Shown: positions 10,448 through 32,746, counted from the first letter of the stretch. The stretch is DNA of 64,000 bases from Thermoproteota archaeon (GCA_038861395.1 JAWCDE010000003.1:3536-67535), one strand, 5' to 3'. A program made the numbers and translations. Notes: generated by a model from the sequence alone, not told the origin.

Positions 10448-11299
10448 TCAAGATGATTTCAGAACTCCCAGAAGCAAAATTACTATTCCCATAGTTAGAC
10501 AATAGTATGCAAATCTGTAAAAACTTTGTCTGGCTACATACTTTTTCAAAAGCCTTAAAACCAGAATGCTCACTACAGCGGTAATTACAACGCCGAAAAG
10601 AATATCTAAAAATTCCTTTTCAAAGGAAGCATCGTTAATTTTAAAAATGCACCCTCCTGTAATGCTTAAAACGGACAATAAGAGGGAAAACCTATATGCT
10701 TCGTCATGTTCTAAACCTGAGATTAGGGCTGTTGAAACCGTTATTCCCATTCTGGAAACACCGGGTATAATCGCAAACGCCTGTGCGAACCCTATTAGCA
10801 GTGCATTGGACGCGTTTAACTTACTCCTATGCTTAGAATATTTTGTCAAGTATAGGATTATGCCACTGATTAGCATTGCCACACCTGTTGAAAAAAGATT
10901 CGTGAAAATGTTTTCAAGAAAATCCTTCAGCAATAAGCTTAGTATTACAATAGGAATAGTGCCGAGCACTAAGTATTTTAATATCTTCCCTTCACTACTG
11001 GAAAAGTTTAGTTTAAAAAGTGTTTTAAACAGGGAATGTAGATCCTTCCTAGTGAAGAAGACTACCCCTATAAGAGAGCCTGCGTGAAGCACAATATCAA
11101 ACGCAACTGAAACCTTAATGTTAAGCAACTCTTGGAAGAAAACTAAGTGCCCCGAGCTCGAGATGGGAAACCATTCTGTTAAACCTTGGACAATGCTTAG
11201 AAAAAATACTTCAAGAATATTGTGTTGGAAAACGCTACTAATCAATAGATTGGAAACAACGAAGCATGTAATGAGTAGTTGATATCCAATGTTAAGCAT
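10448..11299 (-). CDS. uppP: undecaprenyl/dolichyl-diphosphate phosphatase (UppP/BacA family)
   Basis: GLTEWFPISSSGHLV signature and 8 predicted TM helices. Confidence 0.85.
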   Translation of the reverse strand: MLNIGYQLLITCFVVSNLLISSVFQHNILEVFFLSIVQGLTEWFPISSSGHLVFFQELLNIKVSVAFDIVLHAGSLIGVVFFTRKDLHSLFKTLFKLNFSSSEGKILKYLVLGTIPIVILSLLLKDFLENIFTNLFSTGVAMLISGIILYLTKYSKHRSKLNASNALLIGFAQAFAIIPGVSRMGITVSTALISGLEHDEAYRFSLLLSVLSITGGCIFKINDASFEKEFLDILFGVVITAVVSILVLRLLKKYVARQSFYRFAYYCLTMGIVILLLGVLKSS

Positions 11300-11349
11300 T
11301 GCCCTTTAATCTTCAACCTATTCTTAAAAAGTTTTTATGGGACATGAAT

Positions 11350-11935
11350 TTATTCTATCTGAAACGCTCTCGCAGGATTGTTCTTAATAATCGTATTTAC
11401 GAGGTCTTGATTAAACCCCTGTTTTTGCATTAGTGGAAGGAAACTTTTTACAAGATACTCGTAGCCTCTAATAATTCCACCACGAGCCTGGCCTATAGAA
11501 TACCACCCAGAGTCTTGAGATAATAGCAATTGATTTTCAAAACCGTGTTCAACCATAGTTTTAATTAGCTTTAAAGTCTTATCGGCAGTTTCGCTGACCT
11601 ATACGATCATATTCTATCCATGCCCCTCTTCTAGCAGCATTTCAAACGGCATTTTAAATTTTCTTCAGAATCCACATGGACAAATATCAACCTACTACCC
11701 CTTCCCTTCTTCAAGAATATCAAGCACAAGCATTGCTGTCTTGCCGCTTTCCATGTGGCATGCTATGACAACCCCCGTGGAGAGGATGCGGCGAGCAGCA
11801 GCTTTTATTGTTTTCTCATAAACAGGTCTTATTTCTCCAGGCTCTACAGCAATTTTAACGTAACCTGCTTTAACCCATATAATCTAGCATCTACAACCTG
11901 CTGTATTTAAGGTGTTTATCATAATCATTTTAACA
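11350..11935 (-). pseudogene. decayed phosphotriesterase-like lactonase / PHP (PTE family) gene, N-terminal half missing, multiple frame breaks
   Basis: The C-terminal ORF reads ...LLLSQDSGWYSIGQARGGIIRGYEYLVKSFLPLMQKQGFNQDLVNTIIKNNPARAF (PTE C-terminal pattern). Upstream out-of-frame fragments read AGYVKIAVEPGEIRPVYEKTIKAAARRILSTGVVIACHMESGKTAMLVLDILEEGKG and LIFVHVD, matching the PTE central region. They are separated by stops and frame changes. Confidence 0.6.
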
Positions 11936-26971: not shown

Positions 26972-27619
26972 CTATTGCTTCAGCACATTGATTTCAGTTA
27001 CTGCCAAAATTATTTCTTCTGCAAAAAGGTTTATGGCTTCAGGCCCGTTGGCAGTAATAATGTTCCCATCCCTTACTACGCTTCTATGAGTATCCACTAT
27101 GGCTCCATGAGCTTTTAAGTCATTTATCATCCTCTGGTCAGGCCAGCAAGTAATGCTAACCCCATTAACCAAGTCGGCCGCTGCAAGAACCCAGGGACCA
27201 TGGCACATTGCTGCAATAATCTTCCTTTTAGAAAAGCCCTCAGTCAGTATTTTGAAGACTGTCTGATTCTGTTCATGGCGAATCATATTATATGGACCAT
27301 CTCCTCCTGGAATGAAAATAACATGATAATGGGAAACGTTAACCTCGTTGAATGTAATCTCGGGCATACAGCTACCGCCATGGCCTTCAACAATCTCAAC
27401 TTTGAAACTCACAGTGTTTACTTCCGCACCCTCTTTCCTAAGATGGTCAATAACCCCTGTGTATTCAGTGTAATCGAAGCCCTCAGCCACTATAGCCAAG
27501 ACCTTAACTCCCTCTAACCTATGTTTACTTGTTTTTCCGATCCATGAGTAAAGATAGGAACCGATGGCAAAACCTAAAGCAATAGTCAACGCGAATGTTA
27601 AAACATATGCTCTTCTCAT
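26972..27619 (-). CDS. DJ-1/PfpI family protein (class I glutamine amidotransferase-like) with N-terminal membrane anchor
   Basis: AAMCHGPWVLAAADL (nucleophile-elbow Cys), IFIPGGDGP, and an N-terminal TM helix MRRAYVLTFALTIALGFAIGSYLY. The ORF-track start at 27706 would overlap the decayed gene upstream, so I chose Met30. Confidence 0.75.
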   Translation of the reverse strand: MRRAYVLTFALTIALGFAIGSYLYSWIGKTSKHRLEGVKVLAIVAEGFDYTEYTGVIDHLRKEGAEVNTVSFKVEIVEGHGGSCMPEITFNEVNVSHYHVIFIPGGDGPYNMIRHEQNQTVFKILTEGFSKRKIIAAMCHGPWVLAAADLVNGVSITCWPDQRMINDLKAHGAIVDTHRSVVRDGNIITANGPEAINLFAEEIILAVTEINVLKQ

Positions 27620-27714
27620 AGTTAATTCTTCCTTTTTAAACATTTTAAATCTTTTTACAGAAATGTTGGAACCTGTTGAATAAAATCGTTCATTACATCT
27701 GTGCAATTTTTGAG

Positions 27715-27997
27715 TTAAAATCTTGGAAACTTAAGCCTACCAATGTATTCCAATATCCACTTGACAAGCCCATCATAAGCCTCCTCGCCTTTCAGAGTCA
27801 AGTAAACAACGTCTTCAGTATCTATTTCTACGAAACCCTCTCACTCATCTAATCCAAGTTTTCACAAGCCTGTTATAAGCCAAGTCGCATGCAGCGGCTA
27901 AAGCTGTTCTCTTCATACCGTTATTCTCCTTGAGTGTCTTGATGATCCTAGCAGCTACGTAAAGGTCAGGCTTCGAGTCTCGCTCCCTTGAGCTCAT
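27715..27997 (-). pseudogene. small winged-helix transcription regulator disrupted by a frameshift
   Basis: The first frame reads MSSRERDSKPDLYVAARIIKTLKENNGMKRTALAAACDLAYNRLVKTWIR then a stop. Five nucleotides later, in another frame, it reads EGFVEIDTEDVVYLTLKGEEAYDGLVKWILEYIGRLKFPRF then a stop. Together they form one ~92-aa wHTH domain. Confidence 0.5.
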
Positions 27998-28131
27998 TGT
28001 ACAACCATCTCAAATCAATTATAAGGAGGTCAATGGATTCAACATTACGATAAAACTCTCTAACGTTATTCTTATTGATCAACAAAATTATTGGCATAGC
28101 TAAAATAAGCGTAGTTAAGCCAGTTACATTT

Positions 28132-28434
28132 CTATTCGCCCAGAATAAGGGGAAGGGTAGAAAAATGAATAAGAATTGAAAAAATCGGCAGAATTATGAT
28201 AAAGCCGAGAAATAACCAATTAAGCATCTTAATTGCCAGCCACCATTTTATCATCATGATTCCACTAAACAGGGAGTCCCAATCAGTCTCCATAAGAAGC
28301 TTGATTGCAGCAGGAGCTCCCTCTTTAAGAATAGAAGCCCACTCTCTCGTCTTGATCTTTTTTACCTTCATCTCGATGAGGAGTAGGCCAATTAATACTG
28401 TCCATAGAGAAGGCAGTAGGAATAGGAGTTTCAA
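28132..28434 (-). CDS. hypothetical small membrane protein
   Basis: 100-aa ORF with 2-3 hydrophobic helices and no recognisable motif. It lies in a low-density region. Confidence 0.3.
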   Translation of the reverse strand: MKLLFLLPSLWTVLIGLLLIEMKVKKIKTREWASILKEGAPAAIKLLMETDWDSLFSGIMMIKWWLAIKMLNWLFLGFIIILPIFSILIHFSTLPLILGE

Positions 28435-28448
28435 GAAATACTTCTATT

Positions 28449-28838
28449 CTACTGGTTTATCCGTAGAGACGTAGTGTTCACCGTAATAAGCATATAGAGA
28501 GAATTCTCTGGGAAGGACAGTAGTGAAAACATATTCCTCTTCACCCGAGAGGTTAATAATTCCTTTTTCGGTAGTGATAATGTTACTTTACTATCTATAG
28601 TTGGGTGAATACAGACTTCAACTCTTACAAAGAAGCATTCATGCTTAAGCACGATTAGAGTTGCAGGGCTTTCATATATGGGAATGGAACTATGAATTTG
28701 AGATCCTGGTTCGGGCTGATAGATGATGAAATCGAAATCCATATCGTAAAAAAGGTAAAGAAACAAAAACTCGATTACCATAACTGTAAATAACACTGTA
28801 GCAAATAAAGGCTTCACTACGCTTATTTTACTTTTCAC
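28449..28838 (-). CDS. hypothetical protein with N-terminal signal anchor
   Basis: 129-aa ORF, MKSKISVVKPLFATVLFTVMVIEFLFLYLF..., with no recognisable motif. Confidence 0.3.
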   Translation of the reverse strand: MKSKISVVKPLFATVLFTVMVIEFLFLYLFYDMDFDFIIYQPEPGSQIHSSIPIYESPATLIVLKHECFFVRVEVCIHPTIDSKVTLSLPKKELLTSRVKRNMFSLLSFPENSLYMLITVNTTSLRINQ

Positions 28839-28929
28839 ATACTAAGATGGTAATGCTTAGAATATAAAATAAACTCACTCAGAGATAGTATACTTTAAAA
28901 AACAGGATGAAGACAATACTTCGCAGGAA

Positions 28930-29556
28930 TTGATTATTAAAAGTTTCATTGCAGGTCTCTTGGAAACAAACTGCTACCTTGTTGCTTGTCAGGAAACTCT
29001 GAGTGCTATACTAATTGATGCGGGCTTCGATGAAGAAGCTGAAGCAATAACGGTCATTAGAGAAATAGAGAAAAGGAATCTAAAAGTTAAATATGTTTTG
29101 AATACTCACTGGCATCCTGACCACACTGCGGGCAACGAATACTTTAGAGAGAAACTTGGAGCATTGGTTATCATACATAAAGACGATGCGCCTATGCTCA
29201 ATGCTGGAGCTTCCCTATTAGGTTTAAAAGTAAAGCCGCATAGGCCTGACAAGACTGTAACGAATGGGGATTTAATTGAAATAGGGAAAACATGTCTTAA
29301 GATTATTCACACACCTGGTCATACGAGGGGGAGTATATGCGTGTTAGGAAAGGGGGTCGTCTTTACTGGTGATACGCTTTTCGCAGGGTCTATCGGGAGA
29401 ACTGATTTTCCAGGAGGATCCTTTGAGGAGATAATGAGATCCATAAAAGATAAGCTAATGACGCTTTCTGAGGAGACTTTAGTTTATCCAGGTCACGGAC
29501 CTTTTTCAAGCATCGGTAAGGAGAAGAGGACAAACCCGTTTCTAAAAGATATTTAG
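28930..29556 (+). CDS. MBL-fold metallo-hydrolase (hydroxyacylglutathione hydrolase-like)
   Basis: HWHPDHTAGN (HxHxDH), later HTPGHTRGS and GDTLF. TTG start. Confidence 0.85.
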   Translation: MIIKSFIAGLLETNCYLVACQETLSAILIDAGFDEEAEAITVIREIEKRNLKVKYVLNTHWHPDHTAGNEYFREKLGALVIIHKDDAPMLNAGASLLGLKVKPHRPDKTVTNGDLIEIGKTCLKIIHTPGHTRGSICVLGKGVVFTGDTLFAGSIGRTDFPGGSFEEIMRSIKDKLMTLSEETLVYPGHGPFSSIGKEKRTNPFLKDI

Positions 29557-30189
29557 TCAAGTACCGACTTTTGTATTATTTCTGATTTCAAGACAACATT
29601 GTAATTCCTTTAAAACTCTTTTCCATCCCTTGATTTTCCTCGTTTTCATAATTCTAACATAATCCATTATTTTTTGCTTATCGACAATCTCTAATAATTT
29701 CGGCACCATATCTTCTTTTAACGGATAATTGAGATGAATAGTATCTATCAGCGTTTTTTCTGGATCAGAAATTCTTATCCATTCGTCTATTTCTTCCATA
29801 TACTTTAGTTCATACCCGAAGAACATTTTTTCGGAAATTCTTCTTAAGACTATTTTAAAGCCGGAGATCTCCCTTTCTCCAAGCCTGGCTTTTAACGAAG
29901 CATGAGGCGAAAGAACAATTACTCTCGGTACTTGTTCCCAAGCTCCATGGAGAAAGGCGGCGCTCCCCAAGCCGATGTAAGACCTTGGAATTGCTTTGGT
30001 AATCATGTAAGGAGATTTTTTGAAAGTGTAAATTCCTTTAATCAACTCCACAATTTCACCTCTCTTCCTCAAGTTATGTATAAGAATTTTTGCATAACCT
30101 TCTCCAACCCTATTCTCAACAGTCCTGAAAGTAAATAGGCTCGCCTCCCTCAGTTCTTTAAGGAGAGCATCATACTTAACTAATGGCAT
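29557..30189 (-). CDS. AbiEi-like transcriptional regulator / putative type IV antitoxin (wHTH, COG5340-like)
   Basis: N-terminal YDALLKELREASLFTFRTVENRVGEGYAKILIHNLRKRGEIVELIKGIYTF resembles the AbiEi_4 winged helix. It overlaps the upstream nucleotidyltransferase gene by 14 nt. Confidence 0.5.
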   Translation of the reverse strand: MPLVKYDALLKELREASLFTFRTVENRVGEGYAKILIHNLRKRGEIVELIKGIYTFKKSPYMITKAIPRSYIGLGSAAFLHGAWEQVPRVIVLSPHASLKARLGEREISGFKIVLRRISEKMFFGYELKYMEEIDEWIRISDPEKTLIDTIHLNYPLKEDMVPKLLEIVDKQKIMDYVRIMKTRKIKGWKRVLKELQCCLEIRNNTKVGT

Positions 30190-30817
30190 CTTTTTTAATC
30201 CTCCTTACAATAGTTTCGAAACTCGGAGACTTGCCCACTAGAATTAGATCCTGCAACCCCTGAAAATCTTTCGGTTCAGAATTTAAGAAAGAAGATAGCT
30301 TGTCTAAATCTTCACCTACCTTATTCTTGTCGCATAAATCTATTAAATAGAAGATATCATAGAGGTCTTTAGCAGACCTACGGTTTATGAAAGCTTTCAC
30401 TTTCTCTCTCAAGAGGCTTTCAGGCGTAAGCGTAACCACAACCATACTGCTCCCATCCACAAGCCAGAAATTCGCTTCAGTAGTTTCAATATCCTTGGGA
30501 GCGGGCGAAGCCTCTAGCTCGATAATGGCATCGTTACCTATTTTTAAGTAAAGGACTTTAGACGAAGTTATTTTTGATTTAAGTACCTTGAAAATCTTTG
30601 CCGAATAGAAATAATCAGCTAAATCCTCAGGATTATTATGATAAACATCTATATCATAAGAGAATCTTTTCCCGCCGTAAACTCTCCATACCGCCGTACC
30701 ACCGTGAAGGATAAAATCGAAGCTTTTGGAAAGCTCCATCAAGAGTAAATCCTGAAGCTCACCAATACTAAGAAGCTTTCCTTTCAGTATTTTGAATAGC
30801 GGAATCCTATGAAACAT
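30176..30817 (-). CDS. nucleotidyltransferase, AbiEii/DUF1814 family (putative type IV toxin)
   Basis: ILHGGTAVWRVYGGKRFSYDIDVY matches the AbiEii N-terminal GGTAL...RfSeDiDf nucleotidyltransferase motif. Confidence 0.55.
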   Translation of the reverse strand: MFHRIPLFKILKGKLLSIGELQDLLLMELSKSFDFILHGGTAVWRVYGGKRFSYDIDVYHNNPEDLADYFYSAKIFKVLKSKITSSKVLYLKIGNDAIIELEASPAPKDIETTEANFWLVDGSSMVVVTLTPESLLREKVKAFINRRSAKDLYDIFYLIDLCDKNKVGEDLDKLSSFLNSEPKDFQGLQDLILVGKSPSFETIVRRIKKDAIS

Positions 30818-30859
30818 ATATTATTTGTTTACCAAGGTTATATATAAGTATAACCCTGG

Positions 30860-31900
30860 TCAACGTATTAGTGGTATTTTGAAACCACATTTTGGACATG
30901 TGTTGTCAACAGTTATTACATTGCTTACGACTATGAATCCAAAGCGTTTTATTAAAAGTTCTCCACATTGGGGACACCAAGTATTCTCATACCTATGCCC
31001 AGGGACATTACCGATATAGGGGAACAATACTCCCAAAGATCGAGCTAACTCCCTTGCCTTTTCTAAAGTTTTAACAGGTGTAGGGGGTGCATTAAACTTA
31101 TACTCCGGATGATAACGCGTAAAGTGAATCGGCACATCTGGTCCAAGTTCTTTAAGATGCTTTTCTATTAACTGCCTCAGACATTCGTCGTCATCGTTTA
31201 CTCCGGGAATTACGAGATTAACTATTTCTACATGGAGGCCGAGTTCCCTAGCCCTATGAGCATTCCTCCAGACTATTTCAGCCTTAACTCCTCCACAATA
31301 TTTTTCGTAAGCTTCTTCATCACCCTTAACATCGAATTTTATAGCATCTAGGCCAGCTTTTGCAAGAGCCTCCAATGCTTGAACTGTCATATACCCGTTT
31401 GAAACATAAGTATTGTAAAGACCCCGGCTCTTAGCTATTGGAAAAAGATCCAAGCTGTACTCAAGCAAAAGGGTGGGTTCATTAAAAGATATGGAGGTAC
31501 CGCTACAGCCATTACTCCAAGCAATACTCAAAAATTCCTCAGGGCTAACGTAATTAGCCTTCCCAGGGTCTGGTTGGACTTTAGAAATCTCATAATTTTG
31601 ACACCAAGGGCAGGCGAAGTTGCAACTCCATGTACCTACAGTAAGGGCAAAGGTACCGGGATGAAAATGGAAGAAGGGTTTTTTCTCGATAGGGTTTGCT
31701 GAGATAGAAGAGATGTCTCCGTAGACAATCGTGTATAGTTTTCCCTCAACATTCACCCTGGTGCCGCAGAATCCCTGAGAACCTTCTTTAATCCTGCATC
31801 GGCGCTCGCAGGTTAAGCATACTGTCTCGTTTTCACCAATCTCCTCATAGAACCTCGCTTCCTTAACCGTCGAGTACCGCGTAAGCTCAGTCCACTTCAA
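30860..31900 (-). CDS. radical SAM enzyme, AmmeMemoRadiSam-system / PflA-like activase family
   Basis: CNFACPWC (Cx3Cx2C), an N-terminal Cys cluster CLTCERRCRIKEGSQGFCGTR and a C-terminal zinc ribbon CPQCG...CPKCG. Confidence 0.7.
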   Translation of the reverse strand: MKWTELTRYSTVKEARFYEEIGENETVCLTCERRCRIKEGSQGFCGTRVNVEGKLYTIVYGDISSISANPIEKKPFFHFHPGTFALTVGTWSCNFACPWCQNYEISKVQPDPGKANYVSPEEFLSIAWSNGCSGTSISFNEPTLLLEYSLDLFPIAKSRGLYNTYVSNGYMTVQALEALAKAGLDAIKFDVKGDEEAYEKYCGGVKAEIVWRNAHRARELGLHVEIVNLVIPGVNDDDECLRQLIEKHLKELGPDVPIHFTRYHPEYKFNAPPTPVKTLEKARELARSLGVLFPYIGNVPGHRYENTWCPQCGELLIKRFGFIVVSNVITVDNTCPKCGFKIPLIR

Positions 31901-32203
31901 CGTTTTTTAAAAAGCTTCTAGAAGTAAAAGTCTTTCTCTAATGAAACTACTTTTTGGGTAAAAAAGATTGGTTTCTTATAAAGCTTCCTTAATTATAGGA
32001 TACTTAGTTAACTCTGCATCCAGCTTTAAACCCGTCTAATGAAAACCTATATAATGCATCCTTAAAGCTTTTTAAAATAATTATATTATTATGAGAATCT
32101 CTCTGCCTTTTAAGATTCTTTATACAAATATTAACTTTGGAATTTGGAATACCGAAGACTTAAATAGTTGTGTTAATTCTCTTTCTCCTAATTTAGGAAT
32201 AGA

Positions 32204-32665
32204 ATGACGGGAAAACAGATTATTGCTTGCATACTATCTTTGGCAGGAGCAGTTCTAATCCTTTTCAGCGGAATACTTCTGGGAATAATAGCCATTTTAC
32301 TGGGGGTAATTATATCATTTACCAGATGGATACCTATAATTGGGTTACTTTTTGAATTTTTTGGAGAAGAGCTAACATCTTTGGGAATATGGTTGATTAT
32401 AGTGACGAGTATAATCGGGGTATTAATAATTATTGGTGCTGTTATGATCCTCTCAAAAAGTAAGAGCAGAGTTATAAAAGGCTCAATATTAGTCATTGCC
32501 CTTTCTATAATTGCTGTCTTCTTTATTGGGGGATGCTTCTCACCTATGGGCATTGCCTCACTAGAAACTTTATTCTACGTAGGCATCTTACTAGAGATGA
32601 TCGGCGGCACACTCGGTCTTCTCTGGAGGCCTTCAGACCCGTCGCCTCCACCACCCCCTCCTTAA
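32204..32665 (+). CDS. small polytopic membrane protein with C-terminal polyproline tail
   Basis: Four hydrophobic helices and the ending RPSDPSPPPPPP. The antisense ORF 32188-32553 is judged a shadow. Confidence 0.45.
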   Translation: MTGKQIIACILSLAGAVLILFSGILLGIIAILLGVIISFTRWIPIIGLLFEFFGEELTSLGIWLIIVTSIIGVLIIIGAVMILSKSKSRVIKGSILVIALSIIAVFFIGGCFSPMGIASLETLFYVGILLEMIGGTLGLLWRPSDPSPPPPPP

Positions 32666-32746
32666 CAGAATCGTTTCGACTTTTCTATTCTTGGAATTGA
32701 AAATAACCAAAGGCTTGAAAATTTCAAAACGGTTACCGTAAGAAGT

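Follow-up and report, generated by a model that had tools for sequence, protein, structure and literature searches.

Abortive infection systems of the AbiE type combine a toxin, the nucleotidyltransferase AbiEii, with a regulator, AbiEi, which is its antitoxin. We have studied a putative system of this kind in a 64,000 nt stretch of DNA (GCA_038861395.1, JAWCDE010000003.1:3536-67535), which we will call the window; it comes from an uncultured Thermoproteota archaeon of Brockarchaeota type. AbiE has been described in Lactococcus lactis (plasmid pNP40) and in Streptococcus agalactiae. Its toxin belongs to the DUF1814/COG2253 family and has four motifs (I-IV) with an R-x-S/T-x-D-x-D acceptor (PMC3985639; 10.64898/2026.01.19.700257). 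It has a length of roughly 290 aa, its gene overlaps that of AbiEi in a bicistronic unit, and "a regulator precedes the NTase" (nucleotidyltransferase). Mutagenesis has shown that residues G49, R63, D67, D69, K173, R180 and D192 of AbiEii are needed for toxicity and GTP binding, and the promoter has inverted repeats by which AbiEi represses it (Dy et al. 2014, PMC3985639); in S. agalactiae there are two of them, of 23 bp, over the -35 and -10 elements. In this species T65 of AbiEii is auto-phosphorylated when AbiEi binds (preprint 10.64898/2026.01.19.700257).

The MenAT systems of Mycobacterium tuberculosis (MenT1/MenA1, MenT3 or TglT/MenA3 or TakA, and MenT4) have toxins with the same fold, and tRNA acceptor ends are the target which we would also expect in our case. 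Their gene order is antitoxin first. Another group of bacterial systems, RlegTA, SdenTA and SanaTA, combines a DUF1814 toxin with a COG5340-like antitoxin. They are validated toxin-antitoxin (TA) modules, some of them with effects against phage T7 (Sberro et al. 2013, as summarised in 10.64898/2026.01.19.700257). RlegA is "encoded downstream from" the DUF1814 toxin RlegT, and SdenTA and SanaTA are treated there as related validated systems (10.64898/2026.01.19.700257), so that toxin-first DUF1814/COG5340 pairs have an experimental precedent. These systems are bacterial, and it is by description and not by sequence that we liken them to the pair in the window. In Archaea a survey of 7,747 genomes placed AbiE among the validated systems with over 3% prevalence, enriched in DPANN and with AbiEii proteins which cluster apart from the bacterial ones (PMC12988326). 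We found no experimentally characterised archaeal AbiE in the papers which we consulted.

The element of interest lies at positions 29557-30860. We consider it, with a probability of about 0.8, a self-contained 1.3-kb TA cassette of the AbiE family (abortive infection or addiction), which belongs to a compact, mainly archaeal clade with the toxin gene first. Its components are the following:

30831-30860, minus strand: 30-bp dyad, a probable promoter and AbiEi operator, conserved and position-specific
30176-30817, minus strand: AbiEii-type DUF1814/COG2253 nucleotidyltransferase, 213 aa, putative toxin, first gene of the cassette (PF08843, PADLOC, fold)
30200-30206, minus strand: Shine-Dalgarno-like AAGGAGG in the 3' end of the AbiEii gene, 10 nt before the AbiEi ATG
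29557-30189, minus strand: AbiEi-type (COG5340) protein, 210 aa, putative antitoxin and autorepressor, second gene of the cassette (PADLOC, fold)

With the systems of L. lactis and S. agalactiae the pair shares the family of its nucleotidyltransferase, its motifs and acceptor, the overlapping genes and an inverted-repeat element at the promoter. It differs from them in having the toxin first, with only 213 aa, and an archaeal promoter with a first gene that is probably leaderless. The standard profiles for defence systems recognise the pair and archaeal AbiE has already been surveyed, so this instance belongs to a known kind. In public databases the two genes are annotated as "AbiEii/AbiGii toxin family protein" and "predicted transcriptional regulator of viral defense system".

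The toxin assignment, already proposed in the original prediction, agrees with profiles, motifs and predicted fold. The 213-aa protein scores 44.2 bits against Pfam PF08843 (cut-off 22.5, profile search) and is matched by 24 PADLOC AbiEii models, the best at 3e-16. We have aligned it with 22 diverse homologues of 33-76% identity (alignment A1, 23 sequences). Invariant in A1 are G39-G40, R51-F52-S53, D55, D57, K139, A142, R146 and D151-L-Y-D154. All four nucleotidyltransferase motifs are present: hGG, R-x-(S/T)-x-D-h-D, K..A..R and +DxxD, which correspond to motifs I-IV of AbiEii as defined in PMC3985639; the motif HGGTAVWRVYGGKRFSYDIDVY quoted in the prediction is part of this protein. S53 aligns with T65 of S. 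agalactiae AbiEii (R63-x-T65-x-D67), and its equivalents are T39 in MenT1 and S78 in MenT3. A Ser or Thr acceptor two residues ahead of the first catalytic Asp is a trait of Type VII TA systems, in which, as in AbiE and MenAT, the antitoxin causes the toxin to phosphorylate itself; here it is S53, which A1 has without exception.

The AlphaFold2 (AF2) model of AbiEii has a pLDDT of 94.7. The solved structures at the top of its Foldseek list are JHP933 (3.6e-7), MenT1 and TglT/MenT3, and a profile search of the PDB sequences agrees with them. JHP933 of Helicobacter pylori (PDB 4O8S/4OK0) is the closest solved structure (sequence profile 4.9e-8, TM 0.62-0.67). It is also compact, with about 230 aa, but it is a bacterial DUF1814 protein with only 20% identity to the toxin of the window. 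MenAT entries 8AN4 and 6J7N are among the top matches; however the structures of MenT3 and MenT4 have about 290 residues and the matches are distant, with an E-value of 0.004 for MenT4 (6Y56) against the family profile. The identity of the pair to the solved proteins is only 16-20%.

The second protein is matched by 17 PADLOC AbiEi models (best 1.7e-18), one of them (4.8e-16) over the full length of the profile. Its AF2 model has a pLDDT of 91.4 and its top PDB fold match is 6Y8Q, the AbiEi of S. agalactiae (E 2e-7), followed by chain B of the MenAT1 complex. Its N-terminal part forms a winged helix-turn-helix (HTH) domain, with helices 7-15, 21-28 and 30-42 and a wing at 47-55, followed by a C-terminal domain. 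The most conserved part of the N-terminal domain is the predicted helix 30-42 (Y32, K34, H38, L40), which would be the expected recognition helix; its conservation fits a conserved operator core. PADLOC and fold concur in the AbiEi-like winged HTH assignment which had been suggested for this gene, in spite of Pfam scores below threshold. The profile searches therefore place both proteins in AbiE families and not in unrelated housekeeping families.

The two genes lie on the same strand and overlap by 14 nt at 30176-30189, with the toxin first, as the original prediction had noted; all the open reading frames (ORFs) which it described are found where it placed them. We scanned one genome per species, which gave 466 relatives, and kept 80 loci (L005-L084). 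Another four (L001-L004) are NCBI contigs of metagenome-assembled genomes (MAGs) with an identical AbiEii protein and the same gene arrangement as the window. The nearest distinct lineage is L005, 'Candidatus Brockarchaeota archaeon JZZ.bins.4', with 96% protein identity. An AbiEi homologue is found directly downstream of the toxin, on the same strand and never upstream, in 78/78 informative loci of other species, those which have sequence 3' of the toxin; the two loci scored as "none" are contig ends. Adding the contigs of the same species, the adjacent co-oriented layout is present in 82/82 loci with downstream sequence. The overlap of the two genes is usually 13-14 nt. Three full-length AbiEi genes which appear to lie far from the toxin are artefacts of the ORF start. 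We also considered truncated forms of AbiEi (N-terminal, in L013, L014 and L017) and of AbiEii (in L074); they are intact by tblastn and correspond to start-codon artefacts. Shine-Dalgarno-like 5-mers occur at the corresponding position before AbiEi in 48% of the loci of the family and in 12% of background windows.

The canonical order, with the regulator before the nucleotidyltransferase (Dy et al. 2014, PMC3985639), is thus not found in any member of the clade. The suggestion that an inverted order may mark an unusual variant is not supported: toxin-first is the fixed arrangement of a whole subfamily centred on Archaea, with RlegTA as its bacterial precedent. Gene order is a descriptive trait, not a mechanistic one.

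The 80 loci come mostly from Archaea: Thermoproteota, Nitrososphaerota, the Korarchaeota-like Methanodesulfokora, Aenigmatarchaeota, Nano-, Woese-, Pace- and Micrarchaeota, Hadarchaeota, Thermoplasmatales, Methanosarcinales, Methanocellales and Altiarchaeales. A few are from bacteria of the Candidate Phyla Radiation (CPR), Saccharibacteria and Paceibacterota. Contigs binned as CPR bear the toxin-first cassette in L047, L054 and L069 (Saccharibacteria MAGs) and in L049 (a Paceibacterota MAG); in the first three of these four there are TATA-rich palindromes 5' of the toxin gene. They represent either transfer between domains or DPANN contigs which have been mis-binned.

In the window the cassette is placed between two genes of different orientation, and it overlaps a tract of high identity with L005:

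30860-31900, minus strand: radical SAM gene of AmmeMemoRadiSam type (TIGR04337), core neighbour
28930-29556, plus strand: small metallo-beta-lactamase (MBL)-fold hydrolase, glyoxalase-II-like (PF00753, 3.6e-36), core neighbour
29505-31404, no strand: probable recombination tract of about 1.9 kb, 92-100% identity to L005

The family calls made earlier for the two neighbours stand. The radical SAM gene is on the same strand as the pair, as had been stated, but it does not follow it: in the direction of transcription it lies upstream. Further contigs (L085-L088) were reached through close homologues of the radical SAM protein. L085 (82% radical SAM identity) has the order GH20-HD-radical SAM-AbiEii-AbiEi-MBL. 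In L086 (79%) GH20-HD-radical SAM is followed by the convergent MBL gene after a spacer of 57 nt, with no AbiE pair and no dyad. L087 (78%) and L088 (79%) also have no pair; their interval contains URO-D and other genes, and L088, like L086, has the MBL gene. The GH20-HD-radical SAM synteny is held with or without the pair, which is accessory, as predicted: it is absent at the same site in L086-L088, with L086 as an empty site where radical SAM and MBL are adjacent. It is not universally conserved with the core genome. Since the core genes are kept where the pair is missing, the latter represents a separate piece of about 1.3 kb which is inserted where conserved core genes meet. It has been either gained in the sub-clade formed by the window, L005 and L085 or lost outside it. 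The GC content of the cassette is 37.1%, compared with 41-43% in its flanks; it is about 35-39% over 27250-31000 and 41.6% in the whole window. Around the cassette we find no integrase, tRNA gene, Rfam element or flanking repeat. A tRNA or other RNA gene was considered as integration target, but none is present. Neither the comparison of filled and empty junctions nor a repeat search gives any target-site duplication or terminal repeat.

Between the window and L005 the synonymous divergence (dS) of the cassette genes is 0.09-0.12, while it is 0.45 in the radical SAM gene and 1.1-2.1 in HD, GH20 and MBL. A sliding window gives a sharp block from about 31404 to about 29505 with 92-100% identity over a background of roughly 62-88%, or about 96% against about 80%. 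The block extends over the entire cassette, with the 3' half of the radical SAM gene on one side and about the last 50 nt of the MBL gene on the other. We infer that lineages have recently exchanged the cassette by homologous recombination and that the crossovers lay in the core genes at its sides.

Such a tract is also compatible with selfish spread, and the pair might be purely an addiction module, which would secure its own maintenance or that of the DNA around it and play no part against viruses. The original prediction spoke of a typical defence or TA island. This is not supported: the flanks are housekeeping genes (GH20, HD, radical SAM, MBL, DJ-1, Opp), PADLOC matches the radical SAM and MBL proteins only weakly and generically, and the cassette stands alone among them, outside any defence island, as a selfish module could. 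Moreover AbiE systems also stabilise plasmids (PMC3985639), and the AbiE of S. agalactiae gave no protection against 32 coliphages in Escherichia coli (10.64898/2026.01.19.700257). However the AbiE of L. lactis and RlegTA do affect phage (PMC3985639; 10.64898/2026.01.19.700257), and the enrichment of AbiE in DPANN archaea without CRISPR and restriction-modification fits a role in defence (PMC12988326). Addiction and defence are not mutually exclusive and sequence data cannot separate them. We consider a purely selfish module somewhat unlikely.

The AbiE cassette also has its own control region. From the stop codon of the radical SAM gene to the AbiEii ATG there are 42 nt with a dyad, ACCAGGGTTATA-CTTATA-TATAACCTTGGT, which starts at the final base of that stop codon and has its centre 28-29 nt upstream of the ATG. 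Its spacer is similar to a TATA box, CTTATATA, and fits the archaeal TATA-box consensus, TTTAAATA or TTTATATA. With up to 2 mismatches allowed, the 64 kb of the window have a single copy of the core GGTTATA-N6-TATAACC. In 39/78 other loci it is found at most 60 nt upstream of AbiEii, and only three further times in 844 kb of flanking DNA. A relaxed search detects the dyad in 67 non-redundant loci, with the consensus naTaaACcAAaGTTATAttTATATATAACcTtgGTtaATn; in 51 of these 67 its centre is 25-29 nt before the start codon. A TATA box is centred about 26-27 nt before the start of transcription, so transcription should start at the ATG or next to it and the messenger would be leaderless.

The two arms of the dyad vary together. 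They are complementary in 83% of cells; shuffling of the columns gives 74%, and sliding of one arm 30-39%. Two-sided changes appear at 12 of the 15 positions, in 115 cells versus 51 ± 8 in shuffles, and none of 500 shuffles reaches the covariation score. Six inner pairs belonged to the search pattern, but most of the covariation is in the nine outer pairs, which did not. We infer that the dyad is the promoter of the cassette and probably also the AbiEi operator.

The palindrome could instead act in the RNA, as the hairpin of a terminator or processing site, or it could be a site of recombination which mobilises the cassette. Covariation keeps the potential for base pairing, as expected either in a DNA dyad or in an RNA hairpin, and in the window the palindrome is the exact left edge of the inserted DNA. 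On the other hand the centre has the TATA consensus and keeps a constant 25-29 nt away from the start codon irrespective of which gene lies upstream, and this is the geometry of a promoter. The oligo-T run of an archaeal terminator is not present, a second copy at the other end of the cassette and a recombinase gene are both absent, and canonical AbiEi binds inverted repeats at its own promoter. A hairpin or recombination site thus appears quite unlikely.

With the dyad as operator, the history and function of the cassette might be as follows. It would have been inserted between the convergent radical SAM and MBL core genes in an ancestor of a few Brockarchaeota lineages, and later swapped between lineages by homologous recombination. 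The TATA box at the centre of the dyad, which is observed in that position, would drive a leaderless bicistronic messenger. AbiEii would be translated first, and AbiEi would start at the ATG within the last 14 nt of AbiEii which the Shine-Dalgarno motif precedes in the sequence. The winged HTH of AbiEi would bind the dyad and block the access of TBP and TFB, giving negative autoregulation. Its C-terminal domain may neutralise AbiEii; if S. agalactiae AbiE and MenAT are a guide, it would probably do so by causing the toxin to auto-phosphorylate at Ser53. If the supply of antitoxin failed, for example upon infection or loss of the locus, free AbiEii would nucleotidylate the acceptor (3') ends of tRNA and translation would stop. 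To judge from the characterised relatives, the resulting growth arrest would serve abortive infection, addiction or both.

One may go further and suppose that the compact toxin-first clade is a mechanistically distinct variant adapted to Archaea (also found in CPR). In it a single operator of dimer type around the TATA box and an obligatory translational coupling, toxin before antitoxin, would tie the supply of antitoxin to continued translation of the toxin ORF; the shut-off of host translation or transcription by a virus would then be sensed by the system itself, and a 1.3-kb package of promoter, operator and TA genes would spread across phyla and even domains. We mention this as a speculation which we find improbable.

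Several observations weigh against an AbiE-type TA cassette. The AbiEi protein remains below the Pfam thresholds (AbiEi_4 23.6 bits with a cut-off of 25, AbiEi_1 17.2 bits) and at the sequence level it has no match in the PDB even at E<=10, so that 6Y8Q is recovered by fold only. AbiEii is about 30% shorter than the characterised AbiEii and MenT3 proteins. There is a single dyad, unlike the two repeats of S. agalactiae, and from its covariation alone one cannot tell whether it acts as a DNA operator or as an RNA hairpin. Toxicity, neutralisation, DNA binding, phosphorylation and antiviral activity are putative in the toxin-first clade; they are predicted from sequence, models and analogy. A scan of viral contigs gave no relatives and does not indicate a vehicle for spread over long distances. 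Nor did tblastn against PLSDB give any plasmid relative, so that at the sensitivity of tblastn there is no link to the AbiE of bacterial plasmids or to RlegTA. Finally, the asymmetric decay described in the next paragraph involves small counts, in which sequencing errors of MAGs are possible.

Both genes of the cassette are under purifying selection while the operon next to it decays. The dN/dS ratio of AbiEii is 0.17 against L005 and 0.09 against L085; that of AbiEi is 0.16 against L005. In L030 (8001-8609) and L037 (7995-8632) the toxin gene has a stop codon or a frameshift and the antitoxin is intact; in L025 (8001-9249) both are disrupted. An intact toxin with a broken antitoxin is not seen in any locus. 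Disruption of the toxin only is the asymmetry expected of a TA pair.

These data bear on the idea that the pair is not a TA system and consists of a non-toxic nucleotidyltransferase and its regulator, for example a modifier of RNA or small molecules with a housekeeping or stress role. In its favour, purifying selection has kept both genes over substantial divergence, some DUF1814 proteins have no linked antitoxin, and the toxicity of the toxin-first clade is a prediction. Nevertheless the distribution of the pair is patchy, with presence and absence among close relatives; strict pairing, overlap and an autoregulatory layout are typical of TA modules; and all the residues critical for toxicity of AbiEii are conserved. 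The loci with only the toxin disrupted also fit a TA system. A non-toxic pair is very improbable.

The weakest alternative comes from the original prediction, in which the radical SAM and MBL neighbours might form a variant module with the pair. The packing is tight, with 42 nt from the radical SAM stop to the AbiEii start and 0 nt between the stop codons of AbiEi and MBL, which abut, and the arrangement is the same in L005 and L085. However L005 is the only one of the 80 loci of other species in which radical SAM and MBL flank the pair; a single further radical SAM match, in L068, is about 5 kb away. Both genes stay in place, adjacent to each other, where the pair is missing (L086), and on this synteny we have rejected them as partners. 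The radical SAM gene codes for a standard AmmeMemoRadiSam enzyme (265.8 bits against TIGR04337, cut-off 220) with thousands of orthologues (over 6,400 homologues at E<=1e-60), and the cassette bears its own putative promoter and operator; a joint action of the pair with these enzymes is hardly credible.

The region beyond the MBL gene is quite different. As predicted, its coding density is low and its genes are decayed: there is no intact gene in 27707-28929. The features found in this region and at its edge are:

26972-27706, minus strand: DJ-1/PfpI, ORF
27715-27997, minus strand: HTH_45 winged-helix regulator pseudogene (94 aa when intact), disrupted between residues 46 and 54 (tblastn)
27845-27997, minus strand: ORF of the winged HTH remnant, whose frameshifted tail extends to 27715
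27969-28413, minus strand: fragments of a 233-aa membrane protein pseudogene, residues 1-85 deleted, one frameshift (tblastn)
28132-28434, minus strand: small ORF, pseudogene fragment
28447-28841, minus strand: fragment of a 190-aa protein pseudogene, one frameshift, C-terminus deleted (tblastn)
28449-28838, minus strand: small ORF, pseudogene fragment

In L005 three intact, co-oriented and overlapping genes are found beside the MBL gene. They code for a protein of 190 aa (p190), a membrane protein of 233 aa (p233, at 8293-8994 of L005) and an HTH_45 protein of 94 aa (p94, 37 bits against PF14947). The fragments of this operon detected by tblastn show that the small ORFs of the window, and an additional one of 43 aa, are pseudogene fragments. 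The window keeps residues 12-148 of p190, with 12-108 and 107-148 in different frames, and residues 86-233 of p233 with a frameshift. A deletion of about 360 bp has removed the C-terminus of p190 and the beginning of p233. The frameshifted winged HTH remnant had been correctly recognised, but the supposed orphan small membrane ORFs are fragments of the operon which is intact in L005. Since four independent MAG assemblies carry the disruption in identical form, it does not stem from a fault of assembly. The operon has been damaged independently, at different positions, in L085 and L086 (p94 is frameshifted independently in both), which indicates repeated decay and not a single accident; in L087 and L088 it is absent. 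Past the winged HTH remnant, at about 27700, there is a breakpoint of synteny: the window continues with DJ-1/PfpI and an operon of the Opp ABC transporter, while L005, L085, L086 and L088 continue with VIT1 and a methyltransferase.

Within the p233 and p190 fragments there is an inverted repeat of 21 nt (28101-28121/28810-28830), with 20/21 positions complementary and 688 nt between its arms. It is present in L001-L004 and absent from L005, L085 and L086; 200 shuffles of a 5.5-kb region gave no such repeat. At the place of its p190 arm L005 has a strongly different sequence, and the arm looks as though the reverse complement of the other one had been copied over it; perhaps it is a templated (quasi-palindrome) mutation. 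The adjacent DJ-1/PfpI ORF has 244 aa from a TTG start, but in the four MAGs the gene callers chose an internal ATG, which gives 215 aa. The additional N-terminal part, which overlaps the end of the winged HTH pseudogene region, is probably not translated.

Other parts of this neighbourhood also vary. The relatives without the pair have paired genes of the URO-D family (PF01208) 3' of radical SAM, in L086 (8995-11478), L087 (8139-13554) and L088 (8203-10401); L087 has in addition a transaldolase-like and an AP-endonuclease-2 gene. The interval from radical SAM to VIT1 is therefore a variable region in this group. Between the radical SAM and HD genes there is a segment of about 0.7 kb (31905-32700) which only L001-L004 share and which is a gap in the pairwise alignment with L005. 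It contains an ORF on the plus strand (32204-32665) for a predicted membrane protein of 153 aa with a C-terminal PPPPPP tail; at this position L088 has a different ORF of 94 aa. These core genes have in this way another small spot of variation at their side. P0128, a radical SAM homologue of 502 aa from a Brockarchaeota MAG, aligns with 71% of the query at 81% identity, and its precomputed Pfam annotation includes an intein-splicing domain (PF14890), which suggests a radical SAM gene interrupted by an intein. Downstream of the methyltransferase L005 has an overlapping pair of 76 and 135 aa (10846-11483), a candidate TA system of VapBC type (PIN-domain); L085 and L086 have nothing equivalent in that location.

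In the annotation of this genome the 1.3-kb mobile TA cassette should be set apart from its core neighbours and from the decayed operon. In the papers which we consulted we found no description of a fixed toxin-first order, compact proteins and a TATA-centred dyad common to several phyla, with a few CPR among them; these traits offer clear handles for experiments, although they would not be very surprising to a TA specialist. The inverted order of AbiE should not be counted as an anomaly in Archaea. For the clade as a whole we would predict a TATA-centred dyad operator from TACK through DPANN archaea to CPR bacteria, Ser53 as the site of neutralising phosphorylation, and a leaderless toxin with Shine-Dalgarno-coupled expression of the antitoxin. 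The 1.9-kb tract illustrates, neatly and on a small scale, how archaeal lineages may exchange a TA cassette by homologous recombination in the core genes at its sides, and the compact toxin-first clade would be a convenient model for archaeal AbiE.

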